In this document: positions 3,863 through 45,358 of the stretch, piece by piece
Layout of the letters: the number at the start of each line of letters is the position of its first letter
Position numbering within the stretch: position 1 is the first letter of the stretch
Assembly: GCF_055900595.2 (NCBI RefSeq)
Contig: NZ_CM148325.1
DNA: 64,000 nucleotides
Strand: one strand, 5' to 3'
Notes under the pieces: model-generated
What the model was told of the DNA's origin: nothing
What the model saw: only the letters and a program-made list of their open reading frames with translations
The model's database searches: none
Translations under genes and position numbers: made by a program

Positions 3863-4816
3863 GTGGATAGTAATAATCAAATTGAACCCTGTTTAAGCAG
3901 AAAGTCGTCAGAAGGTAAACCACAAATATTTACAACCTTACGAAATATTGATCTTAACCTTCTGACTATTTTTGAAGCTGTGTATGTGCATAAAGGGATC
4001 GTTAATGCAGCGAAAGTGCTTAATCTGACACCCTCGGCAATCAGTCAGTCTATTCAGAAACTGCGCGTTATATTCCCTGACCCATTGTTTATTCGCAAAG
4101 GCCAGGGCGTCACTCCTACTGCATTTGCAATGCATTTGCATGAGTATATCAGTCAGGGCCTTGAATCCATTCTCGGCGCGCTGGATATCGAAGGAACCTA
4201 TGATAAGCAACGAACGATAACTATCGCGACCACCCCCTCGGTCGGAGCCCTGGTCCTTCCTGTCATCTATCGGGCGATTAAATCTCACTATCCGCAGCTT
4301 TTACTGCGCACCCCCCCCATCAGCGACGCGGAAAACCAACTCAGTCAGTTTCAAACCGATCTCATCATCGATAACATGTTTTGCACCAATCGTACGGTGC
4401 AACATCATGTTCTGTTCACCGACAATATGGTGTTAATTTGCCGCGAGGGAAATCCGCTACTCTCTTTAGAAGATGACAGAGAGACTATTGACAACGCTGC
4501 GCATATACTCCTGTTACCGGAAGGGCAAAATTTCAGCGGTCTGCGGCAGAGAGTTCAAGAGATGTTTCCGGACCGGCAAATCAGTTTCACCAGCTACAAC
4601 ATTTTGACAATCGCTGCACTGGTTGCCAACAGTGACATGTTAGCGATTATTCCCAGCCGTTTTTATAACCTGTTTAGCCGTTGCTGGCCGCTGGAAAAAC
4701 TGCCTTTTCCGTCCTTAAATGAGGAGCAAGTAGATTTCTCTATCCACTACAACAAATTCAGCCTGCGTGATCCCATCCTGCACGGGGTAATAGATGTTAT
4801 CCGTAATGCATTTTGA
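3863..4816 (+). CDS. ybeF: LysR-family transcriptional regulator YbeF
   Basis: 317-aa ORF with GTG start; N-terminal HTH (LTPSAISQSIQKLR); paralogous to YbdO later in the window. Confidence 0.85.
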   Translation: MDSNNQIEPCLSRKSSEGKPQIFTTLRNIDLNLLTIFEAVYVHKGIVNAAKVLNLTPSAISQSIQKLRVIFPDPLFIRKGQGVTPTAFAMHLHEYISQGLESILGALDIEGTYDKQRTITIATTPSVGALVLPVIYRAIKSHYPQLLLRTPPISDAENQLSQFQTDLIIDNMFCTNRTVQHHVLFTDNMVLICREGNPLLSLEDDRETIDNAAHILLLPEGQNFSGLRQRVQEMFPDRQISFTSYNILTIAALVANSDMLAIIPSRFYNLFSRCWPLEKLPFPSLNEEQVDFSIHYNKFSLRDPILHGVIDVIRNAF

Positions 4817-7306: not shown

Positions 7307-7690
7307 GTGTTACAACTTCTTTTAGCAGTTTTTATTGGCGGTGGTACGGGAAGCGTGGCGAGATGGCTGTTAAGTATGCGATTTAACCCGCTGCATCAGG
7401 CGATTCCGTTGGGGACGCTGGCTGCAAACCTGATTGGGGCATTCATCATAGGAATGGGATTCGCCTGGTTTAGCAGGATGACGAACATTGATCCAGTGTG
7501 GAAAGTATTAATCACCACCGGATTTTGTGGCGGTCTAACAACCTTCTCAACATTTTCGGCAGAAGTGGTGTTTTTGTTACAAGAGGGCCGCTTTGGCTGG
7601 GCATTACTGAACGTTTTCGTCAACCTTCTGGGGTCTTTTGCCATGACCGCACTGGCTTTCTGGCTGTTTTCGGCCTCAACCGCACACTAA
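7307..7690 (+). CDS. crcB: Fluoride-specific ion channel CrcB/FluC
   Basis: 127-aa hydrophobic ORF with GTG start, matches CrcB. Confidence 0.9.
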
Positions 7691-7695
7691 AGACC

Positions 7696-7724
7696 AAAAA
7701 AAACCCGCTGATTAAGCGGGTTTT
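7696..7724. terminator. Bidirectional rho-independent terminator between convergent crcB and cspE
   Basis: aaaaaaacccgctgattaagcgggtttt hairpin with flanking A-run and T-run. Confidence 0.75.
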
Positions 7725-7743
7725 GAATTCTTGCTGACGTATC

Positions 7744-7953
7744 TTACAGAGCGATTACGTTTGCAGCAGAAGGGCCTTTGGCACCGTTAGTGATTTCGAA
7801 CTCTACGCGCTGACCTTCAGCAAGAGTTTTAAAACCATTAGTCTGGATTGCAGAGAAGTGTACGAACACGTCTTTGCTGCCGTCTTCCGGAGTAATGAAA
7901 CCGAATCCTTTGGACTCATTAAACCACTTAACGTTACCTTTAATCTTAGACAT
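7744..7953 (-). CDS. cspE: Cold-shock-domain protein CspE
   Basis: Supplied ORF is 97 aa from TTG; the internal ATG at 7951-7953 gives the 69-aa [33 protein letters not shown]... CspE sequence with RNP1 motif KGFGFI. Confidence 0.95.
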
Positions 7954-8127
7954 CAAAATTACCTTTACATGAAAAATAGACACAAATGCTGTGTCGGTTA
8001 CCAGTACACCAATTGTGGTACGCTTTGTCCAGTGCAACTTTACTAAAAAGTGATAAAAGTCGCGTTATTTTTGATGTTAATTATTTTAGTCATTGATTTT
8101 AAAGAAGTTACTAAAATTTCATTTGTC

Positions 8128-8688
8128 TCAAAACTGAAAGCGCATCCAGGCAAAGTACACATTGCCATTGTTATAGGTACCCGGAATGTAGGTCATCTGA
8201 AAAGTCACTGGACCATAACCCACAGAGGCCAATGGCAGTAGAACCGGGAGAGGGATGTAATTCCAGTTATCGCGTGCCGTTACGCCAGCGGTGAATCCCA
8301 GTCCTAAATGAAAATTTTCATCCGCCAGCGGTCGCCAGGTACTTTCCCATCCGTATCCGGCAATCGGTTCCCATTTGTTCCACGAGTCCTTAAATGCCAT
8401 GGCATACAGGCCATGCCAGTTTCCTTTTTCATCCCAACGCGACTGACCAAAACCGCCCCCCCACGGTCGCTCGTTATAGCGATCGGTTTTTTCTTTGTCG
8501 TAAGCGAAACGAGCATGCCAGGTGATGGCAGGAATATATAAATCATAATGTTCAGGCTGTTGCCAGGTTTGTGTAATATTTTCTCCAAACGTTGTCATCC
8601 ACTCATCTGCGTTAGCTAAAACTTTACCAACGCTGATTAACTGAATAAAAACAAAGGAAAATATAGCGACATATTTACTCACGTTCAT
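8128..8688 (-). CDS. pagP: Lipid A palmitoyltransferase PagP (outer-membrane beta-barrel)
   Basis: ORF trimmed to the internal ATG at 8686-8688 ([12 protein letters not shown]..., 186 aa), matching PagP/CrcA. Confidence 0.92.
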
Positions 8689-9173
8689 TTGTGACCATAA
8701 AACATTTATCAAAAATCTACTACTAGCATAGCAAAACTACAATTAACATAACCTTAATAGACCCAACATGAAGAATAATCTGAATAGCTGCTCTATTTAT
8801 TTCCGCTTGTTCAAGTTAAATATTTCCGCGCATCGATTAAAGATGATGCGTCGTTTTCTGCGATGGGAATAGTCAAAAAAGAAAAACCAAGTCTTTTTTG
8901 ATGACAAAATGCAATCAAAGAAAAATTATTTTATTTTTTAACTAGATACAACAATCATCTTAACGAAGTATATAATATATATCGTCAACCCATGCTCATG
9001 GTAGATTATTTTATGAGCACACAACCGCAGCTAACACCATTGCAATTAACAAATTTGCATCAATCCACCATCAATTTACACACATTATTATGTGATAATT
9101 GCCAACCGCTAAATATGCGTTTTGTTATCTATGTATAAAAACAGCAACTTCAATGTCTTAATGGCAGTTTTTC

Positions 9174-9187
9174 TTGATTTTAATCAG
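9174..9187. promoter_or_regulatory. Putative FNR box upstream of dcuC
   Basis: TTGATtttaATCAg matches 9 of 10 positions of the FNR consensus TTGAT-N4-ATCAA, centred ~96 bp upstream of the dcuC ATG; dcuC is known to be anaerobically induced. Confidence 0.5.
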
Positions 9188-9276
9188 CATTCACCGCCAA
9201 TTTATTGGGCATATTTTTTCCTTAAGCTTTAGGAATTTTTTATTATTTACCTTGGGGCCTGGAGACAGGAAAAATT

Positions 9277-10662
9277 ATGCTGACATTCATTGAACTCCTT
9301 ATTGGGGTTGTGGTTATTGTGGGTGTAGCTCGCTACATCATTAAAGGGTATTCCGCCACCGGCGTGTTATTTGTCGGTGGCCTGTTATTGCTGATTATCA
9401 GTGCCATTATGGGGCACAAAGTGTTACCGTCCAGCCAGGCTTCAACAGGCTACAGCGCCACGGATATCGTTGAATACGTTAAAATATTGCTAATGAGCCG
9501 CGGCGGCGACCTCGGCATGATGATTATGATGCTGTGTGGCTTTGCCGCTTACATGACCCATATCGGCGCGAATGATATGGTGGTCAAGCTGGCGTCAAAA
9601 CCATTGCAGTATATTAACTCCCCTTACCTGCTGATGATTGCCGCCTATTTTGTCGCCTGTCTGATGTCTCTGGCCGTCTCTTCCGCAACCGGTCTGGGTG
9701 TTTTGCTGATGGCAACCCTGTTTCCGGTGATGGTAAACGTTGGTATCAGTCGTGGCGCAGCAGCTGCAATTTGTGCCTCTCCAGCGGCGATTATTCTTGC
9801 ACCGACTTCAGGGGATGTGGTGCTGGCGGCGCAGGCTTCCGAAATGTCGCTGATTGATTTCGCCTTCAAAACGACGCTGCCTATCTCGATTGCTGCGATT
9901 ATCGGCATGGCGATCGCCCACTTCTTCTGGCAACGTTATCTGGATAAAAAAGAGCACATCTCTCATGAAATGTTAGATGTCAGTGAAATCACCACCACTG
10001 CCCCTGCGTTTTACGCCATTCTGCCGTTCACGCCGATCATCGGAGTACTGATTTTTGACGGCAAATGGGGTCCGCAATTACACATCATCACAATTCTGGT
10101 GATCTGTATGCTGATTGCCTCCATTCTGGAGTTCATTCGCAGCTTTAATACTCAGAAAGTGTTCTCGGGCCTGGAAGTGGCTTATCGCGGGATGGCAGAT
10201 GCGTTTGCTAACGTGGTGATGCTGCTGGTTGCCGCTGGGGTATTCGCTCAGGGGCTTAGCACCATCGGCTTTATTCAAAGTCTGATTTCTATCGCCACTT
10301 CGTTTGGTTCGGCGAGTATCATCCTGATGCTGGTATTGGTGATCCTGACAATGCTGGCAGCAGTCACGACCGGTTCAGGCAATGCGCCGTTTTATGCGTT
10401 TGTTGAGATGATCCCGAAACTGGCGCACTCTTCCGGCATTAACCCGGCGTATTTGACTATCCCAATGCTGCAGGCGTCAAACCTCGGTCGTACCCTGTCA
10501 CCCGTTTCTGGCGTAGTCGTTGCGGTTGCCGGGATGGCGAAAATCTCACCATTTGAAGTCGTAAAACGCACCTCGGTGCCGGTGCTTGTTGGGCTGGTGA
10601 TTGTTATCGTTGCTACAGAGCTGATGGTGCCAGGAACGGCAGCCGCGGTAACAGGCAAGTAA
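9277..10662 (+). CDS. dcuC: Anaerobic C4-dicarboxylate transporter DcuC
   Basis: 461-aa polytopic membrane ORF matching DcuC; intact. Confidence 0.93.
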   Translation: MLTFIELLIGVVVIVGVARYIIKGYSATGVLFVGGLLLLIISAIMGHKVLPSSQASTGYSATDIVEYVKILLMSRGGDLGMMIMMLCGFAAYMTHIGANDMVVKLASKPLQYINSPYLLMIAAYFVACLMSLAVSSATGLGVLLMATLFPVMVNVGISRGAAAAICASPAAIILAPTSGDVVLAAQASEMSLIDFAFKTTLPISIAAIIGMAIAHFFWQRYLDKKEHISHEMLDVSEITTTAPAFYAILPFTPIIGVLIFDGKWGPQLHIITILVICMLIASILEFIRSFNTQKVFSGLEVAYRGMADAFANVVMLLVAAGVFAQGLSTIGFIQSLISIATSFGSASIILMLVLVILTMLAAVTTGSGNAPFYAFVEMIPKLAHSSGINPAYLTIPMLQASNLGRTLSPVSGVVVAVAGMAKISPFEVVKRTSVPVLVGLVIVIVATELMVPGTAAAVTGK

Positions 10663-11383: not shown

Positions 11384-13010
11384 TAGGTTTCACTTTCGGA
11401 ATATAGATTGAAAATAAGGTACCGCAGGGATCATTATCTTCGAGAGTGATAACACCACCGCAGCGCGTTACGTAGCTGGCAATCAAGTACAACCCAATGC
11501 CATGTTCGCCGGGCTCGTCAGCACGCGTACTGACACCCTGCTCAAATATTTTGTCTCGTAGAGACTCTGGAACGCCGCAGCCCTGATCGGCGACTTCAAT
11601 CACCACATCATCGCCTTCATCGCTGAGGAATAATTCAACGATCTTGTTTCCTTCATCGCTACGCAGGCTGGCTTCGAAGGCGTTATCAAGTAAATTGCCA
11701 ACAATGGCTGCAAACTCGGTGCTGTCCAGTCCTGGCGGCAGTTGCGAAAGATGACTTCCGGGGACGATGACCATTTTTAGCCCCAGTTCGCGGGCGCGCT
11801 GCACTTTACCAAAAAGCAGCCCCGCCACCTGGCGATCGGCAAACGCCTCGCGCAGGCTATCAATAAGCTGTTGCTGGGCCTGAGACTCCCCCTGCACCAT
11901 CGCCAACACGCGATCATACTCTTTCATCTGCAACAGACCATTGAGCGTCGACATCCAATTGAGATGCTCGTGTCGCAATGTGCGCAGGCTCTCGACGTAT
12001 TGTTTAATTTGCGTCAGTTGTGCATTGAGGGTGGATATTTCGTCTTTACTACGAAAGCTGATAATGGCCCCCAGCAAATCATCACCAGAACGAATAGCTT
12101 CCCGGTTGGCAATAACGCTCAGACCGTTAAAGTTCGCCACCACATCCTGACGTTTTTCATCAATCTGTTCGGTAAAGAAATCGGCGGGCCTGACCACTTC
12201 AGCAATGGGTTTACCCAACCATTGCCGTCCGGGGGAACTCAGCCCCAGCATCTTTCTTGCGTTACGATTGATGGCGGTAATGTAACCGTGCGGATCCACC
12301 GCAATCAGCCCTTCATAAACCGAACTAAACAGCGCCTCTTGCTGACGGACCACGCGTGCGATTTGCTTTGGCTCCATGCCCATCATTTGCCGACGGATAT
12401 GCGCGGCCAGGAACCACGACAGCAACATCAGAATCCCTAACAGCACGACAAACACGCCAGCCATCGGTAATAAAAACTCAGCCCGCCAGCTATCGATTTT
12501 ACTCACCAGGTAGCCAATCGACACCACGCCGATGACTTTTCCATCGTCATCAAAGATTGGCGTTTTGGCACGCATCGCCATGCCAATTGACCCTTTCCCG
12601 GTGATAAAGTAGCTCTCCCCTTTCTCCAGCGCGCCCGGTTTGGTGAACTGCATAGGATAACCAATTTTCTCCGGATTAGGATGGTAAAGACGAATCGAGT
12701 GCCGATCGCCAATCACCACATAATCGAAATCAGTATCTCTTTGTAATTTGTCAGCGATGGTCGCCAGCCTCTTGTAGTCACGCGTTTTCACTGCGCTGAT
12801 GATACTGTCATTAGAAGCAATAATTTTTGCCTGATTCATTGCCATGTCGCGCACATGAAGCGTTAAATAGTCCTCAAAACTGGCCGTAAAATATTGCGCC
12901 AGGGCTGCAATGACAAATATTGAGAACACCAGAATCAGCAAAAAGATACGCAGCGGAAATGCCAGTCTTTGGAAAAATGCAAACTGTTTATTCTCGTTAA
13001 GCTGCAACAT
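11352..13010 (-). CDS. dpiB: Sensor histidine kinase DpiB (CitA), citrate-responsive
   Basis: ORF trimmed to the ATG at 13008-13010 (MLQLNENKQF..., 552 aa); two TM segments, H-box and ATPase motifs. Confidence 0.92.
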   Translation of the reverse strand: MLQLNENKQFAFFQRLAFPLRIFLLILVFSIFVIAALAQYFTASFEDYLTLHVRDMAMNQAKIIASNDSIISAVKTRDYKRLATIADKLQRDTDFDYVVIGDRHSIRLYHPNPEKIGYPMQFTKPGALEKGESYFITGKGSIGMAMRAKTPIFDDDGKVIGVVSIGYLVSKIDSWRAEFLLPMAGVFVVLLGILMLLSWFLAAHIRRQMMGMEPKQIARVVRQQEALFSSVYEGLIAVDPHGYITAINRNARKMLGLSSPGRQWLGKPIAEVVRPADFFTEQIDEKRQDVVANFNGLSVIANREAIRSGDDLLGAIISFRSKDEISTLNAQLTQIKQYVESLRTLRHEHLNWMSTLNGLLQMKEYDRVLAMVQGESQAQQQLIDSLREAFADRQVAGLLFGKVQRARELGLKMVIVPGSHLSQLPPGLDSTEFAAIVGNLLDNAFEASLRSDEGNKIVELFLSDEGDDVVIEVADQGCGVPESLRDKIFEQGVSTRADEPGEHGIGLYLIASYVTRCGGVITLEDNDPCGTLFSIYIPKVKPNDSSINPIDR

Positions 13011-13389
13011 TGTTTTCCTTGCGGGTTGTCCCGAGCCTCTTTGACGGATGTAATTAAAATGTTGAATCAAAATACATAGATATTAAATATAATCGTGGCA
13101 AATTTTATTCATTAAATCAATTAAATCACTTAAACCTGCGGGTCATTTCGTAATTACATTAATTAAAAAACTTAAAACCATTAAATAAATAAAAAACCAC
13201 TAACTCTATGTGAAATAAATCAAAATTTCACGCTGCAATACTCCTTAGGATGTATAGCGAAAGGAGAAAAAGATATACCTCGATCGCCCCCCTTTCTCCC
13301 AAGTGAAAATAAAAGGTTATCAGTTTGCAACATCGAACAACATTCGTTGCAAATCGATAACAACATGCACCTTCAGGATACTATTTATT

Positions 13390-14448
13390 ATGTTCGGCAA
13401 TGATATTTTCACCCGTGTAAAACGTTCAGAAAATAAAAAAATGGCGGAAATCGCCCAATTCCTGCATGAAAATGATTTGAGCGTTGACACCACAGTCGAA
13501 GTATTTATTACCGTAACCCGCGATGAAAAGCTTATCGCGTGCGGTGGAATTGCCGGAAATATTATTAAATGCGTTGCTATCAGTGAATCCGTTCGCGGTG
13601 AAGGACTGGCGCTGACATTAGCCACTGAATTGATAAACCTCGCCTATGAGCGGCACAGCACGCATCTGTTTATTTATACCAAAACCGAATACGAGGCGCT
13701 GTTCCGCCAGTGCGGTTTTTCCACGCTGACCAGTGTACCCGGCGTGATGGTGCTGATGGAAAACAGCGCCACGCGACTGAAACGCTATGCCGAATCGCTG
13801 AAAAAATTTCGTCATCCAGGGAACAAGATTGGCTGCATTGTGATGAACGCCAATCCCTTTACGAATGGTCACCGTTATCTGATTCAACAGGCTGCAGCAC
13901 AGTGCGACTGGTTGCATCTGTTTTTAGTTAAAGAAGATTCTTCACGCTTTCCCTATGAAGACCGGCTGGATCTGGTGTTAAAAGGCACCGCCGATATTCC
14001 ACGCCTGACTGTGCATCGCGGCTCCGAATACATCATCTCCCGCGCTACGTTCCCTTGCTACTTCATTAAAGAACAGAGCGTCATTAACCATTGTTACACC
14101 GAAATTGATCTGAAGATTTTCCGTCAGTACCTCGCTCCCGCGCTGGGTGTAACTCACCGCTTTGTCGGTACTGAACCCTTTTGTCGCGTTACCGCCCAGT
14201 ACAACCAGGATATGCGCTACTGGCTGGAAACGCCGACTATCTCCGCACCGCCCATCGAACTGGTTGAAATTGAGCGGCTGCGTTACCAGGAGATGCCGAT
14301 ATCCGCTTCCCGGGTACGTCAACTGCTGGCGAAAAACGATCTCACGGCTATCGCGCCGCTGGTCCCTGCAGTCACGCTGCATTATTTGCAGAACCTGCTT
14401 GAGCACTCCCGCCAGGACGCGGCAGCTCGTCAAAAGACCCCCGCATGA
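13390..14448 (+). CDS. citC: [Citrate (pro-3S)-lyase] ligase
   Basis: ORF trimmed to MFGNDIFTRV... (352 aa); first gene of citCDEFXG, divergent from dpiB. Confidence 0.9.
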   Translation: MFGNDIFTRVKRSENKKMAEIAQFLHENDLSVDTTVEVFITVTRDEKLIACGGIAGNIIKCVAISESVRGEGLALTLATELINLAYERHSTHLFIYTKTEYEALFRQCGFSTLTSVPGVMVLMENSATRLKRYAESLKKFRHPGNKIGCIVMNANPFTNGHRYLIQQAAAQCDWLHLFLVKEDSSRFPYEDRLDLVLKGTADIPRLTVHRGSEYIISRATFPCYFIKEQSVINHCYTEIDLKIFRQYLAPALGVTHRFVGTEPFCRVTAQYNQDMRYWLETPTISAPPIELVEIERLRYQEMPISASRVRQLLAKNDLTAIAPLVPAVTLHYLQNLLEHSRQDAAARQKTPA

Positions 14449-21689: not shown

Positions 21690-22044
21690 TCCCATCTGCA
21701 CAAGCGACAACTCGCTTTGCCCAGAGGATGCACTCGCATCCTCTTTCCGCTCAAATATCAACCAGATTTATCATTTTGCTCTTAAGCACAGCATTCTAAT
21801 CTGAACTGGTTATTCATCTGCGGAACCCCATATGAGCGAAGCTCTCAGTATCACTGCGTTTTATATATTCATAGCAGCTATTATTGTTGCTGCAGTGCTA
21901 TACCTTGAACAACGCTGGTAGTACCTGGTTTTATTTATTTTCCAGATCAATCGCAAATTCAGATCGAATCAGCCTCGCAAATCATAGATTCATAATCAAT
22001 AATGTGCTGTTATGTATACATGCAAAAACAAGGAGAGAATGCTT

Positions 22045-24330: not shown

Positions 24331-24894
24331 TTAGATTTTACCAACCAGGTCCAGAGACGGAGCCAGAGTTGCTTCACCTTCTTTCCATTTAGCCGGGCAA
24401 ACTTCACCTGGGTGAGAAGCTACGTACTGTGCTGCTTTGATTTTACGCAGCAGGTCAGACGCGTCACGGCCAATGCCTTCAGCGGTAACTTCGATTGCCT
24501 GGATGATACCCTGCGGGTCAACAACGAAGGTCGCACGGTCAGCCAGACCTTCATCTTCACGCATGTTGTCGAAGTTACGGGTCAGGGCGCCAGTCGGGTC
24601 GCCGATCATCGCATATTTGATTTTAGCGATAGTTTCAGAGCTGCTGTGCCATGCTTTGTGGGTGAAGTGAGTATCGGTAGATACTGCGTATACATCTACG
24701 CCCAGTTTCTGCAGTTCTTCGTAGTGGTCAGCAACGTCACCCAGTTCGGTCGGGCATACGAAAGTAAAGTCAGCCGGGTAGAAGAAGAAGACGCTCCAGC
24801 GGCCTTCGGTATCTTTTTCGGTGATTTCGATGAATTCGCCGTTTTTGAATGCCTGGTTTTTAAAAGGTTTAATTTTGGTGTTAATCAAGGACAT
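24331..24894 (-). CDS. ahpC: Alkyl hydroperoxide reductase subunit C (2-Cys peroxiredoxin)
   Basis: 187-aa [24 protein letters not shown]... with peroxidatic FTFVCPTE and resolving VCP motifs. Confidence 0.97.
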
Positions 24895-25266
24895 CTATAC
24901 TTCCTCCGTGTTTTCGATGAGATGTAAGGTAACCAATTTTTGCCGATTCGGCTAATGCGTTTCCATTATCAAATCGATAAGTTTTACCTTACAACCGTCG
25001 TAAGACAACTTTGTGAACTTTGCACCGCCAGTGGCGATAAAAAGTAAAATGGGCCCTCTTTCCAGGTGACCGTGTAATCTGAACTACCCTTTGGTATCTT
25101 CAGCGCCTGCCTGCAGGCTGTGGTGTTGCCCTTACAAATGCAACAACGACATGGATTACAACACCCTCATAAACAAAGGGCAATCACCTGATCTAAGCTC
25201 TTACCTATGACAGTGATAGGTTATGCCTTTTACTCCATTTTTGCACTGACTGAAAAGGACAAATTA
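24895..25266. promoter_or_regulatory. Divergent ahpC / dsbG promoter region (expected OxyR-controlled)
   Basis: 372-bp spacer between divergent starts; OxyR control of ahpCF and dsbG is established knowledge. Exact operator not resolved from sequence. Confidence 0.5.
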
Positions 25267-26013
25267 ATGTTAAAAAAGATACTTTTACTGGCTCTGCTTC
25301 CTACAATCGCCTTTGCAGAGGAACTTCCTGCTCCGGTAAAAGCGATTGAAAAACAGGGCATTAAGATCATCAAAACGTTCGATGCCCCCGGCGGAATGAA
25401 AGGTTATCTCGGCAAGTATCAGGATATGGGCGTCACCATCTACCTGACTCCAGATGGTAAGCACGCTATCTCTGGTTACATGTACAACGAGAAAGGTGAA
25501 AACCTGAGTAACATGCTTATCGAAAAAGAAATTTATGCGCCAGCCGGACGCGAAATGTGGCAACGGATGGAACAATCGCACTGGCTCCTCGACGGTAAAA
25601 AAGACGCGCCAGTCATAGTCTACGTTTTCGCCGATCCGTTCTGCCCATATTGTAAACAGTTCTGGCAGCAGGCGCGCCCGTGGGTTGATTCTGGCAAAGT
25701 ACAGTTGAGAACATTGTTGGTTGGGGTTATCAAACCAGAAAGTCCGGCGACAGCCGCGGCAATTCTGGCCTCTAAAGATCCCGCAAAAACCTGGCAAGAA
25801 TATGAAGCCTCTGGCGGCAAACTTAAGCTAAATGTGCCTACAAACGTAAGTGCAGAGCAAATGAAAGTGTTAAGCGACAACGAGAAACTCATGGACGATC
25901 TGGGGGCAAATGTCACACCGGCTATCTATTACATGAGTAAGGAAAATACGCTGCAACAGGCCGTGGGGTTGCCCGATCAGAAAACGCTTAATATCATCAT
26001 GAGAAATAAATAG
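25267..26013 (+). CDS. dsbG: Periplasmic thiol:disulfide interchange protein DsbG
   Basis: ORF trimmed to [17 protein letters not shown]... (248 aa); thioredoxin CPYC active site. Confidence 0.93.
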
Positions 26014-26220
26014 AAGGTAATTCATGGGTGGTTGAAATACATTCTTGCTTTTCAACCATTCTAAAAACGCATGAATTGCTTCTTCCCCTCCTGACAACTG
26101 TGTTACTTTAGAAAAACTTAATCCAGAGTTAAGTAATAAAACATAACAAATATAAATAAAACAGTAGAATCATTGATTACAAGAATGATTTATGGAAAAG
26201 ATAATATAACGGAGTATGTT

Positions 26221-27123
26221 ATGGCTAATCTTTATGATTTAAAAAAATTCGACCTCAATTTACTGGTCATATTTGAGTGCATTTATCAACACCTCAGCAT
26301 TAGCAAAGCAGCAGAATCATTATATATAACGCCATCTGCCGTTAGTCAGTCGTTACAACGTTTACGCGCGCAATTTAATGACCCGTTATTCATCCGCTCA
26401 GGGAAAGGTATCGCGCCGACTACAACAGGGTTAAATCTGCATCACCATCTTGAGAAAAATCTCCGAGGCCTTGAACAAACGATCAATATCGTTAATAAGT
26501 CTGAGCTGAAGAAAAATTTTATTATCTACGGTCCTCAGCTTATTTCTTGTAGTAATAACAACATGCTAATCCGCTGTCTAAGACAAGATACTTCAATCGA
26601 TATAGAATGCCATGACATACTGCTTTCAGCTGAAAACGCTGAAGAATTGTTAGTTCAACGCAAAGCTGACCTGGCAATTACACTGCAACCAGTAATTAGC
26701 CGCTCTGTCATCTGCATGCCGGTACATACTATTCGCAATTCTCTTATATGTAGCAACAAACATCCTCGTATTACCGATACCAGTAACTATGAACAAATTA
26801 TCGCCGAAGAATTCACCTTGTTGATATCTAAATCAGCAGGGATTGACGAAATTCAAATGGACATAGATGAACGTTTTATGAACCGTAAAGTTTCATTTCG
26901 CAGTTCTTCTTTGTTGACGATAATTAATAGTATTTCTGTTACTGACTTATTGGGCATTGTGCCCACCGAACTGTACGATTTACATCGTGATTTTTTGAAG
27001 TTACAAGAGATAAAACTGGAACGACCACTTCCTACGGTTAAACTTTATATTTCCTATAACAAGGCTTCGTTGAACAACCTTGTCTTCTCACGATTCATAG
27101 ATCGTTTAAATGATAGCTTCTGA
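26221..27123 (+). CDS. ybdO: LysR-family transcriptional regulator YbdO
   Basis: Start taken at MANLYDLKKFDLNLL... (300 aa, GGAG RBS); N-terminal HTH; strongly AT-rich coding sequence. Confidence 0.85.
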   Translation: MANLYDLKKFDLNLLVIFECIYQHLSISKAAESLYITPSAVSQSLQRLRAQFNDPLFIRSGKGIAPTTTGLNLHHHLEKNLRGLEQTINIVNKSELKKNFIIYGPQLISCSNNNMLIRCLRQDTSIDIECHDILLSAENAEELLVQRKADLAITLQPVISRSVICMPVHTIRNSLICSNKHPRITDTSNYEQIIAEEFTLLISKSAGIDEIQMDIDERFMNRKVSFRSSSLLTIINSISVTDLLGIVPTELYDLHRDFLKLQEIKLERPLPTVKLYISYNKASLNNLVFSRFIDRLNDSF

Positions 27124-27269
27124 TTTATTACCACGGATAAATGTTATATTACGCATCAATTGATTCATTGTGTGAATATAAAATAATGTGCTCTATCTTG
27201 CTTCGTTTACCCTATAATTAGCGGATTCATCTCACAAGTCACCCAGTAACGTTCAGAGAGCGTTTTCAG

Positions 27270-28490
27270 ATGTCTATTTATAAAATCCCTCTTCCGCTGA
27301 ATATTTTAGAAGCTGCACAGGAACGTATTACCTGGACACTTAACACATTGCCCCGTGTTTGCGTTTCTTTTTCGAGGGGTAAAGATTCCGGATTAATGCT
27401 GCATCTTACCGCCGAACTTGCCAGAAAATTGGGAAAAAAAATCTGCGTTTTGTTTATCGACTGGGAAGCACAGTTCTCTTGTACCATCGACTATGTACAG
27501 TCGTTACGCGAGTTGTATACCGACGTTATTGAAGAGTTTTACTGGGTAGCACTCCCACTCAAGACGCAAAATTCCCTTTCACAATACCAACCAGAATGGC
27601 AGTGCTGGGAATCTGATGTCGAATGGGTGCGTCAGCCCCCGCAAGAAGCGATAACCGATCCTGACTTTTTCTCCTTTTACCAGCCAGGCATGACCTTCGA
27701 ACAATTTGTACGTGAGTTTGCCGAATGGTTTTCACAAAAACGTCCGGCGGCGATGATGATCGGCATCCGTGCGGATGAGTCCTACAACCGTTTTGTCGCC
27801 ATCGCCAGTTTAAGTAAACAACGTTTTGCCGATGATAAGCCCTGGACCACAGCCGCACCAGGCGGTCACAGCTGGTACATTTACCCCATCTACGACTGGA
27901 AAGTAGCTGATATCTGGACCTGGTATGCTAATCATAAATCCCTATGTAACCCATTGTATAATATCATGTATCAGGCAGGCGTTCCCCTGCGTCATATGCG
28001 AATTTGCGAACCTTTTGGCCCGGAGCAACGGCAAGGATTATGGCTCTATCACGTTATCGAACCGGATCGCTGGGCTGCTATGTGCGCACGAGTTAGCGGG
28101 GTAAAAAGTGGCGGCATTTACGCCGGACATGACAATCATTTTTATGGTCATCGGAAAATCCTCAAACCAGAGCATTTAGACTGGCAAGAGTATGCATTAT
28201 TGCTGCTTGATAGCATGCCGGAGAAAACGGCTGAGCATTACCGCAACAAAATTGCCATTTACTTGCATTGGTATCAGAAAAAAGGTGTCGAGGTGCCACA
28301 GACCCAGCACGGGGACATTGGCGCGAAAGATATCCCCTCCTGGCGGCGAATTTGCAAGGTGTTACTGAATAACGATTACTGGTGTCGGGCATTATCATTT
28401 AGCCCAACCAAAGCGAAGAATTATCAGCGTTATAACGAACGGATAAAAGTAAAACGTCAGGAGTGGGGAATACTATGCAACAACAATTAA
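27270..28490 (+). CDS. ybdN: PAPS-reductase-like / PP-loop ATP-pyrophosphatase superfamily protein YbdN (function unknown)
   Basis: 406-aa ORF; N-terminal PP-loop-like motif VSFSRGKDSG; recognised as YbdN. Confidence 0.88.
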   Translation: MSIYKIPLPLNILEAAQERITWTLNTLPRVCVSFSRGKDSGLMLHLTAELARKLGKKICVLFIDWEAQFSCTIDYVQSLRELYTDVIEEFYWVALPLKTQNSLSQYQPEWQCWESDVEWVRQPPQEAITDPDFFSFYQPGMTFEQFVREFAEWFSQKRPAAMMIGIRADESYNRFVAIASLSKQRFADDKPWTTAAPGGHSWYIYPIYDWKVADIWTWYANHKSLCNPLYNIMYQAGVPLRHMRICEPFGPEQRQGLWLYHVIEPDRWAAMCARVSGVKSGGIYAGHDNHFYGHRKILKPEHLDWQEYALLLLDSMPEKTAEHYRNKIAIYLHWYQKKGVEVPQTQHGDIGAKDIPSWRRICKVLLNNDYWCRALSFSPTKAKNYQRYNERIKVKRQEWGILCNNN

Positions 28491-29092
28491 CGCAGGATTT
28501 AACCCAATTTCTCGCCAGCTTGCCGGAAGACGATCGCATCAAAGCGATTAACGAAATCCGCCTGGCGATCCATCAGGTTAGCCCCTTTCGTGAAGAGCCA
28601 GTAGATTGTGTTCTGTGGGTTAAAAACAGCCAACTTATGCCAAATGATTACAACCCAAACAATGTGGCACCGCCCGAGAAAAAACTGTTACAAAAATCCA
28701 TTGAGATAGATGGTTTTACCCAACCTATTGTGGTCACGCACACAGATAAAAATGCTCTGGAAATCGTGGATGGCTTTCACCGTCATGAAATTGGTAAAGG
28801 CTCTAACACGTTAAAAATGCGATTAAAAGGATATTTACCGGTCACCTGTCTGGAAGGAACACGTAACGAACGCATCGCCGCGACTATTCGTCATAACCGC
28901 GCTCGTGGACGCCACCAAATTACAGCCATGTCAGAAATCGTTCGTGAACTCAGCCAGTTAGGATGGGACGACAATAAAATCGGCAAAGAGCTGGGTATGG
29001 ACAGCGACGAAGTGTTGCGCCTGAAACAAATTAACGGCCTGCAAGAGTTATTTGCTGACCGTCAATATTCCCGCGCCTGGACAGTAAAATAA
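28463..29092 (+). CDS. ybdM: ParB/sulfiredoxin-fold (ParB-like nuclease domain) protein YbdM (function unknown)
   Basis: 209-aa ORF from GTG 28463, overlapping ybdN by 28 nt (alternative ATG at 28475); DGFHRH motif resembling the GxHR signature of ParB/Srx/DndB-like proteins. Confidence 0.82.
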   Translation: MGNTMQQQLTQDLTQFLASLPEDDRIKAINEIRLAIHQVSPFREEPVDCVLWVKNSQLMPNDYNPNNVAPPEKKLLQKSIEIDGFTQPIVVTHTDKNALEIVDGFHRHEIGKGSNTLKMRLKGYLPVTCLEGTRNERIAATIRHNRARGRHQITAMSEIVRELSQLGWDDNKIGKELGMDSDEVLRLKQINGLQELFADRQYSRAWTVK

Positions 29093-43416: not shown

Positions 43417-44228
43417 CCGAATCAGTAGCCCGTTTGCGTGGCGAACAGTTAACCCTAGGATATGGCAAATATACCGTTGCGGAAAATCTGACTGTAGAAA
43501 TTCCTGATGGTCACTTCACGGCAATTATCGGGCCAAATGGCTGCGGTAAATCCACGTTGCTGCGTACCTTAAGCCGCCTGATGACGCCTGCTCACGGGCA
43601 TGTCTGGCTGGATGGCGAGCACATTCAACATTACGCCAGTAAAGAGGTCGCACGCCGGATTGGTTTACTGGCGCAAAACGCCACCACGCCGGGAGATATC
43701 ACCGTGCAGGAGCTGGTGGCGCGTGGGCGATACCCGCATCAACCGCTGTTTACCCGCTGGCGCAAAGAAGATGAAGAAGCGGTAACGAAAGCGATGCAGG
43801 CCACGGGAATAACTCATCTGGCAGATCAAAGCGTGGATACCCTTTCTGGCGGACAACGCCAGCGAGCGTGGATCGCGATGGTGCTGGCCCAGGAAACGGC
43901 AATTATGCTACTCGACGAACCCACCACCTGGCTGGATATCAGTCATCAGATTGATTTGCTGGAATTGTTAAGCGAACTGAACCGCGAGAAAGGCTATACC
44001 CTGGCGGCGGTACTGCACGATCTTAATCAGGCCTGTCGGTACGCTAGCCATTTGATTGCATTACGTGAAGGGAAAATTGTCGCTCAAGGAGCACCAAAAG
44101 AGATAGTCACTGCTGAACTGATTGAGCGTATTTATGGTTTGCGTTGCATGATCATTGACGATCCGGTAGCCGGAACTCCGCTTGTGGTGCCGCTCGGACG
44201 AACGGCACCTTCAACCGCGAAGATTTAA
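43413..44228 (+). CDS. fepC: Ferric enterobactin ABC transporter ATP-binding protein
   Basis: Trimmed from a 377-aa ORF to MTESVARLRGEQLTLGY... (271 aa); Walker A GPNGCGKST, signature LSGGQRQR; start overlaps the fepG stop (ATGA). Confidence 0.94.
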   Translation: MTESVARLRGEQLTLGYGKYTVAENLTVEIPDGHFTAIIGPNGCGKSTLLRTLSRLMTPAHGHVWLDGEHIQHYASKEVARRIGLLAQNATTPGDITVQELVARGRYPHQPLFTRWRKEDEEAVTKAMQATGITHLADQSVDTLSGGQRQRAWIAMVLAQETAIMLLDEPTTWLDISHQIDLLELLSELNREKGYTLAAVLHDLNQACRYASHLIALREGKIVAQGAPKEIVTAELIERIYGLRCMIIDDPVAGTPLVVPLGRTAPSTAKI

Positions 44229-45358
44229 ACTAAGTGGTCTGCCATCATGGCATCCTGTTTTCTGGATGCCATGGCATGGCGCAACAGCACGCTACCACAA
44301 GCCACCATACCGCCGATCAACGCAGAAAGGATCACGATAATCGCCTTACCCGGCCCGTCTTTTTTCACTGGCAATGACGGGCTTAACTGATATTTAAACG
44401 GCGTAAAATTCACATCGTTGATATTTGCTTTTGTTAGCTGCTCAACAAGATACTGACGATTACGTAATTCACCGTTCAGTTCCGCAACGTCAGTAACCGC
44501 TTTTTCAATTTCCAGTTTGCGTTCAATACCGTCTGCGCCGAGAGAAATAGAGAAATCGGGGTCATCTTTAACGGCCTGACCATTACTGTAAACGGGCTTT
44601 TTAATTCCTGCCGCGTTGGCAATGTCGAGTGAATAATTGAGGCGCTGAATGTTTGCATCAAGTTGATTTTTCGTTTTAATGCGATCCTGAGCCAGTTTTT
44701 CTTTTTCAAACTGGGTTTTGATCTCCAGTTTATTACGGACGTTTTCTATCGACTCTTTCACCACCAATGCAGAGATATAATCGATATACCCGCTCAAAAC
44801 GGTCTGCGCCTCTTCACTGGTTGGCGCGGTAAAACTTAGCGTCCAGGAGGCATACAGTGACGGTTCATCTTTTTTCTTACTGGCATTGTCATCAACCGCT
44901 TTCATTTTTTCGCTCAATGCGACGATAGCGCGATGCAAATCCAGTTCGTCGATTTTCGCCTCTTTTAATTGGTCCATCACATAAGGTGATGAGCGCAGGT
45001 ACTCTTCCAGTAAGCTAACAGACTGAAACTTCTTGATAAACAGGTTAAATGCTTCTGTACGATCAATTTTGATATCCAGATCCAGCACACGAAGCTTAGT
45101 GAATGTTTTCTCAAGCGCCTGCCACTGAACAGGTTCTGGAGGCGTGACAACCGCCGCGCTGGTCCATTTTTGCGGCAGGATGAAAGAGATCAGTAAACCT
45201 GCGCAGACAAACGCAAAAACGACCGCCATGACCGTTTTTTTGGCCCGCCATAAAACTTCAATTAGATTAAGTAAATCAATTTCATTATTACTGGGCGACG
45301 CCAGAGGATACTCGGGAAAATGAGCGTCACTTCCCTGTTTAATATTCAGTGATGACAT
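44225..45358 (-). CDS. fepE: Polysaccharide co-polymerase (Wzz-family O-antigen chain-length regulator) FepE
   Basis: 377-aa ORF with N- and C-terminal TM segments; 3' end overlaps the fepC 3' end by 4 nt (convergent). Confidence 0.92.
   Translation of the reverse strand: MSSLNIKQGSDAHFPEYPLASPSNNEIDLLNLIEVLWRAKKTVMAVVFAFVCAGLLISFILPQKWTSAAVVTPPEPVQWQALEKTFTKLRVLDLDIKIDRTEAFNLFIKKFQSVSLLEEYLRSSPYVMDQLKEAKIDELDLHRAIVALSEKMKAVDDNASKKKDEPSLYASWTLSFTAPTSEEAQTVLSGYIDYISALVVKESIENVRNKLEIKTQFEKEKLAQDRIKTKNQLDANIQRLNYSLDIANAAGIKKPVYSNGQAVKDDPDFSISLGADGIERKLEIEKAVTDVAELNGELRNRQYLVEQLTKANINDVNFTPFKYQLSPSLPVKKDGPGKAIIVILSALIGGMVACGSVLLRHAMASRKQDAMMADHLV

Follow-up and report, generated by a model that had tools for sequence, protein, structure and literature searches.

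Between dsbG and ybdN, Escherichia coli carries ybdO (also named citR), the gene of a LysR-type regulator, in DNA whose AT-richness sets it apart from everything around it. We asked what such an island represents: a foreign gene recently inserted and silenced by H-NS, or a resident of the locus, AT-rich for reasons of its own. The island studied here occupies positions 26014–27269, everything between the dsbG stop codon and the ybdN start codon, in a stretch of 64,000 nucleotides of contig NZ_CM148325.1 (assembly GCF_055900595.2). This stretch, hereafter the window, matches E. coli Z0117EC0005, isolated from a dog, at 100% identity. Our answer, which we hold to be probable, is that the island—ybdO and its two regulatory spacers—is an old resident silenced by H-NS, that it represses the downstream ybdNM operon, and that it exists in the species as two allele classes. 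The silencing by H-NS and the regulation of ybdNM by YbdO are both already published; the addition, of moderate interest to specialists, is an ancient and constrained dimorphism whose extent coincides with that of a regulator gene of lasting AT-richness, silenced by H-NS. The literature on ybdN, ybdM, IbrA, IbrB and on polymorphism or recombination at ybdO yielded almost nothing relevant.

Base composition of the island

The island has a GC content of 0.362, compared to 0.515 for the whole window. Just 0.2% of the 1256-bp stretches of the window reach this value or a lower one, and the minimum for that length (0.356, starting at 25975) falls at nearly the same place. The dsbG-ybdO and ybdO-ybdN spacers have a GC of 0.293 and 0.349 and the coding sequence of ybdO 0.380, against 0.465 for ybdN, 0.459 for ybdM, 0.47 for dsbG, 0.526 for ahpF and 0.545 for ybdL, the group ahpF, ybdL, hcxA and cstA lying at 0.53–0.57. 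ybdO is the poorest in GC of the 47 genes annotated in the first 50 kb (mean 0.522, standard deviation 0.047), about 3 standard deviations below the mean, and also the poorest at third codon positions (GC3 0.373); the shift affects every codon position, with a GC1 of 0.443 and a GC2 of 0.323. Runs of at least 8 nt made only of A and T number 13 in the island for 3.7 expected from its length, and the low-GC zone reaches past the island on both sides, over the last 100 bp or so of dsbG and the first 200 bp or so of ybdN. An earlier note on this DNA had put ybdO and the dsbG-ybdO spacer at 35–40% GC by eye. The sliding-window calculation shows this estimate to be accurate, and the island to be the window's lowest stretch, distinct from the neighbouring genes.

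Other low-GC stretches are present in the window: 7620–9930, i.e. cspE-pagP and the spacer towards dcuC (minimum 0.373), 12312–14100, covering the 5' part of dpiB and the dpiB-citC spacer (about 0.41), and 44225–45358, which is fepE (0.448). ybeF (3863–4816, + strand) encodes the nearest paralogue that YbdO has in the window (30% identity, E = 2e-33) and is likewise shifted towards AT (GC 0.457 against the window gene mean of 0.522). Two direct copies of a 17-nt repeat, 26158–26174 and 26305–26321, lie on either side of the ybdO start (88% identity, 147 bp apart); in DNA this rich in AT, chance probably accounts for their resemblance.

Age of ybdO at this locus

One genome per species was scanned with the YbdO alignment seed, which returned 77 loci; neighbours were placed by tblastn with the neighbouring proteins, and the GC deficit was counted on the 70 loci longer than 9 kb. 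The order ahpC-(dsbG)-ybdO-ybdN-ybdM-ybdL is common to at least 15 genera of Enterobacteriaceae, including Escherichia, Salmonella, Citrobacter, Enterobacter, Klebsiella, Kluyvera, Leclercia, Lelliottia, Trabulsiella, Yokenella and Pseudocitrobacter. In all 70 loci ybdO is poorer in GC than the rest of its locus, by 10.5 points on average (range 5.1 to 15.9); the mean deficit is 2.0 points for ybdN and 1.3 for ybdM, and dsbG and ahpC remain within about 2 points. The GC of ybdO moreover tracks that of the host (0.467 vs 0.579 in Klebsiella pneumoniae, 0.375 vs 0.514 in Salmonella). Between E. coli and Citrobacter or Salmonella fourfold degenerate sites are saturated (p = 0.68–0.79), and the GC3 of ybdO stays at 0.34–0.40 across these genera, compared to 0.44–0.61 in its neighbours. 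Within the species, 5355 of the 5426 complete E. coli genomes (98.7%) have the island. There are no tRNA genes between 15000 and 40000, no repeats bounding the island beyond short ones at chance level, and no mobility genes near it in the annotation.

The synteny, the host-tracking deficit and the lack of mobility signatures imply that any acquisition predates the radiation of these genera, and gene order and composition together indicate that the ybdO island has been in this slot since before the enterobacterial genera diverged. A recent horizontal acquisition, in which the E. coli lineage would have received a foreign AT-rich ybdO (perhaps with ybdNM) in the interval from dsbG to ybdL and brought it under H-NS silencing, would account for the strongly atypical composition, for the binding of H-NS to a gene classed as horizontally transferred (PMC4720273) and for the faster evolution of YbdO (49–61% amino-acid identity to other genera, against 71–85% for YbdN and 82–87% for YbdL), but it is highly improbable given the shared gene order, the near-universal presence in E. 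coli, the want of tRNA genes, boundary repeats and mobility genes, and a deficit following the host, which indicates that the gene co-evolved with each genome. The horizontal origin proposed in the earlier note is thus not borne out, at least as a recent or E. coli-specific event.

Two allele classes in E. coli

When K-12 is compared to a strain of phylogroup B2 in 60-bp bins, identity is 0.63–0.88 over a segment that slightly exceeds the island (Table 1) and 0.92–1.00 outside it, save for a few bins at 0.87–0.90. The window compared to K-12 in 200-bp windows behaves similarly: 91–99% identity in most of the flank and 70–86% across 26000–27500. The alignments of the two classes contain no indel in ybdO or in the ybdO-ybdN spacer, and the dsbG-ybdO spacer differs by 1–4 bp in length between strains. 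Among the 5426 genomes, 3567 match the K-12 island at 97.9% or more, 1773 at 78–80%, and 16 in between; the same-length control in ybdL gives a continuum from 100% to 95% identity. About 13–16 genomes have an island identity between those of the classes (80–95%), and these may be inter-class recombinants. Class A gathers the B2 and F strains, CE10, the window strain and the lineage L074; class B comprises K-12, O157:H7, O104:H4, O78 and the lineage L006. The window allele is a divergent variant of class A, 6–7% from the mainstream class A alleles of B2 and F.

The depth of the divergence is best seen at synonymous sites. Between K-12 and B2, ybdO has 1.98 synonymous substitutions per site (dS) and 0.066 nonsynonymous ones (dN), hence a dN/dS of 0.03, compared to a dS of 0.08–0.36 in the flanking genes; ahpC of K-12 was left out of this comparison, that sequence being from an Origami strain with a 3-bp insertion. 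The species-wide median dS is 0.06 (PMC4720273). At fourfold sites the p-distance is 0.50 in ybdO and 0.10–0.21 in the flanks. Over residues 1–113 of YbdO, its HTH (helix-turn-helix) domain and linker, the classes do not differ by a single amino acid, even though 42 codons there carry synonymous differences; the 33 replacements are confined to residues 114–300. The ybdO of the window shares 79.4% of its nucleotides and 89% of its amino acids with that of K-12.

Distances and trees were computed on 13 E. coli-like genomes. Within a class, island p-distances are 0.7–7.4% and match those of the flanks; between classes they are 20.5–23.8%, whatever the flank distance. Thus ybdO has a dS of 0.19 between the window and B2 (flanks 0.27–0.42) and of 0.20 between K-12 and L006 (flanks 0.21–0.46), and K-12 and O157 differ by 1.3% in the island and by 1.3–2.5% in the flanks; the identity of K-12 and O157:H7 is 98.6% over the island, for 98.3% over ybdL. 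The within-class distances of the outlying lineages likewise scale with those of their flanks. In neighbour-joining trees of three flank segments, mainstream E. coli of both classes form one clade (98.5–100% bootstrap) that leaves out the window strain, L074 and L006; monophyly of class A is recovered in 0–0.5% of the replicates in all three segments and that of class B in 0% in two of them, while in the left-flank tree, from which K-12 and L006 were left out, the three remaining class B genomes come together in 43% of the replicates. The ybdO tree, by contrast, separates class A, with the window and L074, from class B, with L006, each at 100%. Within-class distances in the island equal those in the flanks, which argues against a locally raised substitution rate, the reading preferred by Higashi et al. 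(PMC4720273); and the incongruent trees, together with the scaled distances, are most simply read as allele lineages that predate the splits of the window strain, L074 and L006. These comparisons point to two old allele lineages rather than to a faster substitution rate.

One might nevertheless suppose that H-NS silencing relaxes the constraint on ybdO or raises its rate, the classes being merely the two deepest phylogroup branches read by a fast clock. Among H-NS-bound regions, ybdO does belong to the 50 with the highest substitution rates (PMC4720273); at all phylogenetic depths YbdO exceeds YbdN about 3–5 times in dN; and dividing the class A–B dN by the E. coli–E. albertii dN gives about 0.45, a value similar to that obtained from flank dS. 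The co-variation of class with ybdR, 4 kb off, also hints at lineage structure. This explanation is very doubtful all the same: a fast clock should leave the island more diverged than its flanks within each class, which it is not, and would hardly open a gap between about 98% and about 80% in the distribution of identities; a dN/dS of 0.03 and 113 invariant N-terminal residues do not speak of relaxed constraint; and three flank trees contradict that of ybdO, at 98.5–100% bootstrap.

The co-variation just mentioned was seen in the genomes that were fetched. ybdR, an alcohol dehydrogenase gene of about 1.2 kb in K-12, is not in the window, where its site (21750–22027) lies between rnk/yldA and uspG. 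It is absent from seven of seven class A genomes (the window, APEC E18006, GF60, PS1Phumofeces1, ECE313, CB7286 and SC455) and present in five of five with a K-12-type locus (K-12, O157, O78, UTAK-8 and ET120, the latter keeping only the first 110 bp or so of ybdO).

Outside E. coli, the dN between classes A and B (0.07) is lower than that separating them from E. albertii, E. whittamii and the lineage L082 (0.14–0.18), so that A and B are each other's nearest relatives among the sampled sequences. The block dsbG-ybdO-ybdN-ybdM (25267–29092) is 15–19% diverged from E. albertii and L082, and ybdO itself 26–28%, compared to 7–10% for ybdL-hcxA and 5–7% for cstA; in E. whittamii and E1V33, ybdO alone is that divergent. 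As far as these alignments tell, deep or mosaic ancestry around ybdO reaches beyond E. coli.

H-NS silencing and control of ybdNM

The binding of H-NS is documented in several strains. Chromatin affinity precipitation with sequencing (ChAP-seq) found ybdO occupied both upstream and within its coding sequence in K-12, SE11 and SE15, and the gene is derepressed in an hns mutant (Higashi 2016, PMC4720273). The same authors placed the K-12 transcription start 107 bp upstream of the ATG and delimited two H-NS-dependent elements, an upstream regulatory element (URE) from -250 to -176 relative to the ybdO ATG and an intragenic downstream one (DRE) from +27 to +164, which they explicitly likened to those of bgl and proU; they had chosen ybdO for its top-50 rank in substitutions among H-NS-bound regions, classed it among H-NS-bound horizontally transferred genes and found it expressed at basal level (PMC4720273). 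In a K1 strain, binding of H-NS to the ybdO promoter was observed by electrophoretic mobility shift assay (EMSA), together with an effect of the hns deletion and a relief by acid pH (Fan 2022, PMC9141747).

As for ybdNM, YbdO was renamed CitR in a K-12 study that reports a peak upstream of citR-ybdNM by chromatin immunoprecipitation with exonuclease digestion (ChIP-exo; Rodionova 2022, PMC9068703). Deletion of citR raises ybdN by log2 5.5 and ybdM by log2 2.5, two genes otherwise barely expressed (base means 36 and 20; PMC9068703); in K-12, therefore, YbdO represses the ybdNM operon. The deletion also raises cysDNC, cysJI and cysAWU by log2 2–2.8 (Table 1 of PMC9068703), and the rise of sulfate-assimilation genes with ybdN, which resembles a reductase of 3'-phosphoadenosine 5'-phosphosulfate (PAPS), may link ybdNM to sulfur metabolism.

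Both functional guesses of the earlier note are hence supported by published work: H-NS binding by ChAP-seq, hns derepression and EMSA in K-12, SE11, SE15 and the K1 strain, and an effect of YbdO on ybdNM by the K-12 peak and deletion. That note went further and proposed a dedicated regulator, with ybdO-ybdN-ybdM to be looked for as a unit in other species; here only the regulation stands. ybdO occurs without ybdN or ybdM in nine species (four Leclercia, two Silvania, K. indica, Pseudenterobacter timonensis and one metagenome-assembled genome), ybdL following it directly in eight of them and being absent too from the ninth, so that YbdO is not solely the regulator of ybdNM. Further direct targets have been reported, kpsM in the K1 strain (PMC9141747), and ahpC, oxyR and others elsewhere in the literature.

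Where could YbdO bind? Across genera the variable dsbG-ybdO spacer contains one strongly conserved block, TGnTAyTTTAG-N5-CTTAA-N7-TTAAG, which unites the -10/start region of ybdO, conserved from Escherichia to Salmonella in the alignment, and a dyad that we call box 1 (Table 1), the most conserved block of this spacer in Escherichia, Citrobacter and Salmonella. The published K-12 start falls two bases before the dyad. Box 1 is thus a candidate operator well placed for autorepression and consistent in position with the ChIP-exo peak (PMC9068703); a predicted YbdO site upstream of ybdO has been published as well (PMC9068703). The second candidate, box 2, precedes the ybdN ATG by 107 bp. This dyad preserves both half-sites, its central 5 nt being free, in K-12, B2, E. 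albertii, L082, Citrobacter, Trabulsiella, Klebsiella and Yokenella, in a spacer only 63–67% identical between the E. coli classes. The dyads were read on the aligned footprints of Escherichia, Citrobacter and Salmonella only; loose dyad expressions searched over the 77 loci gave many chance matches in AT-rich spacers and were dropped. The promoter scan returned seven promoter-like sites for 5.2 expected, and the terminator scan one terminator-like site for 1.0 expected, located inside the ybdO coding region and none between ybdO and ybdN; neither count is above chance.

Table 1. Features of the ybdO locus, in coordinates of the window
Feature	Position	Strand	Basis and remarks
Two-class divergence segment, GC 0.373	~25920–27500		60-bp sliding identity, K-12 vs B2 strain
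dsbG	start 25267	+	
Stem-loop just 3' of the dsbG stop	26022–26075	+	folding -17.1 kcal/mol, z = -3.3, 0 of 200 shuffles as stable
ybdO promoter, extended -10 TGtTACTTT (26101–26109), start ~26115/26116	26101–26116	+	homology to K-12 start
Box 1, dyad CTTAA-N7-TTAAG, T-N11-A core, +2 to +18	26117–26133	+	alignment; candidate autoregulatory operator
ybdO/citR, 300-aa LysR-type regulator	26221–27123	+	Pfam, NCBIfam, RefSeq; class A variant
Box 2, dyad ATTCA-N5-TGAAT, T-N11-A core	27163–27177	+	alignment; candidate ybdNM-promoter operator
Consensus -10 TATAAT, putative ybdN promoter, no good -35	27213–27218	+	sequence; TATAA in all aligned Escherichia
ybdN, PAPS-reductase-like + DUF3440	27270–28490	+	Pfam, RefSeq
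ybdM, ParB-N/IbrB-like	28463–29092	+	Pfam, RefSeq

The stem-loop that follows dsbG is probably a dsbG 3' hairpin: its arms read GGTTGAA...TTCAACC in E. coli and AACTGAA...TTCAGTT in the E. albertii group, a difference of two compensatory pairs. It overlaps the upstream element published for H-NS (PMC4720273).

The control that we envisage would run as follows. The AT-rich DNA of ybdO would serve as a platform for the nucleation of H-NS and for silencing, the elements mapped in other strains on either side of the promoter holding the gene nearly off; silencing would lift under conditions that relieve H-NS, such as stationary phase or acid pH. YbdO, once made, would bind its own promoter, possibly at box 1 just downstream of the start, and would keep the co-directional downstream ybdNM operon repressed, possibly through box 2 in the ybdN promoter. 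The same circuit would operate in the window strain. The AT-richness would be maintained because it gives H-NS its control, and the two classes would differ in their response to an effector, not in DNA recognition.

The AT-richness could, on the other hand, be functionless: a barely transcribed and weakly selected gene drifting passively to its mutational equilibrium, with H-NS binding as a by-product. Mutation is AT-biased in enterobacteria, and the paralogue ybeF is AT-shifted too. The basal expression of ybdO (PMC4720273) and an H-NS motif scan that finds nothing specific in the island are also in keeping with such drift. We regard it as unlikely, though, because ybdN and ybdM, just as barely expressed, are only 1–2 GC points below their loci, because YbdO is under strong purifying selection (dN/dS 0.03), and because the deficit affects codon positions 1 and 2 besides the third and recurs in 70 of 70 species. 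As it persists despite synonymous saturation, the AT-richness looks maintained and not left over; it appears actively maintained, be it by selection for H-NS control or by a mutational equilibrium specific to the locus.

Several points weigh against the picture of an H-NS-silenced, autoregulated repressor kept AT-rich by selection. For the published high-affinity motif of H-NS, TCGATAAATT, allowing up to 2 mismatches, the window holds 65 matches for 61 expected, and the island only four loose ones, so that H-NS binding is argued here from the AT content and from the literature on other strains only. H-NS occupancy, the transcription start and the repression of ybdNM are likewise transferred from other strains and alleles to the window strain, whose -10 element reads TACTTT where K-12 has TATTTT. 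That the AT-richness is kept by selection is something we infer. The half-sites of boxes 1 and 2 differ (CTTAA vs ATTCA); one protein is therefore unlikely to use both as primary sites, and at most one of these candidates is likely the primary site of YbdO. The published regulons of YbdO disagree as well, since it activates capsule genes in K1 and represses oxidative-stress genes in avian pathogenic E. coli (APEC). Finally, the dimorphism need not be a maintained polymorphism: neutral deep coalescence or an old introgression could have produced it instead.

Origin of the two classes

The last objection deserves discussion. In the introgression scenario, one class would have been imported long ago by homologous replacement from an unsampled Escherichia-like lineage, without long coexistence or selection, its boundaries being set where flank homology permitted recombination. 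The sharp boundaries and the near collinearity of the classes, with length differences of 1–4 bp confined to the dsbG-ybdO spacer, are what such a replacement would leave, and the divergence between classes exceeds that of any flank; the contrast between the dsbG-ybdM block and ybdL-hcxA in the comparison with E. albertii and L082 further suggests repeated exchange of alleles. But A and B are mutual closest relatives, so that no donor has been sampled; both classes occur in lineages outside mainstream E. coli (the window strain and L074 for A, L006 for B); and within-class island distances scale with the flanks, as under vertical co-divergence. An old introgression accordingly strikes us as rather unlikely.

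A long-lived and possibly selected polymorphism of two ybdO alleles, older than the radiation of E. coli and of the cryptic lineages nearest to it, with the AT-richness and the H-NS silencing under selection and shielding both alleles, remains our own tentative proposal, to which we give somewhat less than even credence. Were it true, E. coli would possess two sensor versions of one H-NS-gated regulator, with the same DNA-binding module, conserved operators and effector domains that differ at 16% of their residues, which could explain the conflicting YbdO regulons and virulence phenotypes of K-12, K1 and APEC. The two old and constrained classes also lead to another reading of the example of H-NS-facilitated diversification given by Higashi et al. 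(PMC4720273). This affects how the locus should be cited; in practice, experiments on YbdO should also name the allele class used.

Gene identity and neighbourhood

The genes around the island are ordered ahpF(-) ahpC(-) dsbG(+) citR/ybdO(+) ybdN(+) ybdM(+) ybdL(-) hcxA(+) cstA(-). YbdO has an HTH_1 domain (PF00126) at residues 12–70 (E = 8e-19; 67.7 bits for a cutoff of 26.6) and a LysR_substrate domain at residues 137–298 (40.3 bits for a cutoff of 28). It matches the CitR equivalog of NCBIfam (NF047710) with 455.4 bits (cutoff 400) over profile positions 1–294 of 295, the next-best families being YbeF, then LeuO. The context is that of CitR, ahpC-dsbG upstream and ybdNM-ybdL downstream, and the same gene is annotated citR in the 100%-identical genome NZ_CP098223.1. 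LysR-type transcriptional regulators (LTTRs) typically, though not obligatorily, diverge from their target; ybdO and ybdNM are co-directional, 146 bp apart, a common exception that leaves the membership of YbdO untouched, both domains being present. Operators of LTTRs are dyads with a T-N11-A core at the regulator's own or its target promoter; boxes 1 and 2 each contain such a core, but with unlike half-sites, and are candidates only.

PADLOC gave no match for YbdO and only marginal ones for YbdN and YbdM (DndC, BrxP and a methyltransferase; E ~1e-3), and an assignment of ybdNM to a defence system was dropped for that reason. An Rfam search of 24800–27600 in E-value mode found nothing within the island; in the ahpC-dsbG spacer (25039–25133, - strand) it gave a sub-threshold match to STnc70, an enterobacterial small RNA (32.6 bits for a gathering score of 40, E = 4e-4). 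In some strains the module is dispensable, as follows from ybdO interrupted by IS1 in genomes H41, H43, H63 and H166, from ET120, where an IS5-family element stands in place of everything from ybdO to entF, and from UTAK-8, whose ybdM is frameshifted.

Comparison with known systems

The nearest known system is ybdO/citR of K-12 (b0603): the same gene at the same locus, dsbG upstream and ybdNM downstream, with residues 1–113 100% identical and box 1 and the -10/start region conserved. It belongs nonetheless to the other allele class, all 33 replacements being in the effector-binding domain, so that the K-12 experiments may not be quantitatively transferable to the window allele.

Regarding silencing, the AT-rich zone of the window spans the positions of both the URE and the DRE, as in the paired H-NS elements of the bgl/proU type; unlike bgl and proU, the silenced gene is here itself a transcription factor with a candidate autoregulatory site. 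leuO, too, encodes a LysR-type regulator and is silenced by H-NS. Among the NCBIfam families LeuO ranks third for YbdO, after CitR and YbeF, which places them in the same LTTR sub-group, and both are encoded by AT-rich, H-NS-repressed genes; YbdO is not a LeuO, however, its 96 bits being far below the LeuO cutoff of 262. YbdO is not known to antagonise H-NS globally, and its clearest target is the adjacent ybdNM operon.

With the classical xenogeneic islands silenced by H-NS, the ybdO island shares low GC and H-NS repression. It differs from them by its synteny throughout the family (70 syntenic loci) and its near-universal presence in E. coli, where xenogeneic DNA is sporadic, and by the lack of mobility signatures, for neither tRNA, integrase or transposase genes nor flanking direct repeats, the marks of mobile genomic islands, occur at ybdO. 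Its GC deficit, moreover, persists despite synonymous saturation: ybdO has kept a deficit of 5–16 points through complete synonymous turnover, which means that AT-rich and H-NS-bound does not imply recently acquired.

The locus has instead the features of an ancient allelic dimorphism, that is, discrete classes far above the flanks, within-class distances equal to those of the flanks, and an incongruent tree. In E. coli, fliC and rfb-gnd are antigen loci with deeply diverged allele classes. Those of ybdO resemble them in being discrete and far above the flanks, with sharp boundaries and trees at odds with those of the flanks. Unlike the products of these loci, YbdO is a cytoplasmic transcription factor, with a dN/dS of 0.03 and an invariant DNA-binding half, and diversifying selection on a protein surface is therefore not the driver of its two classes.

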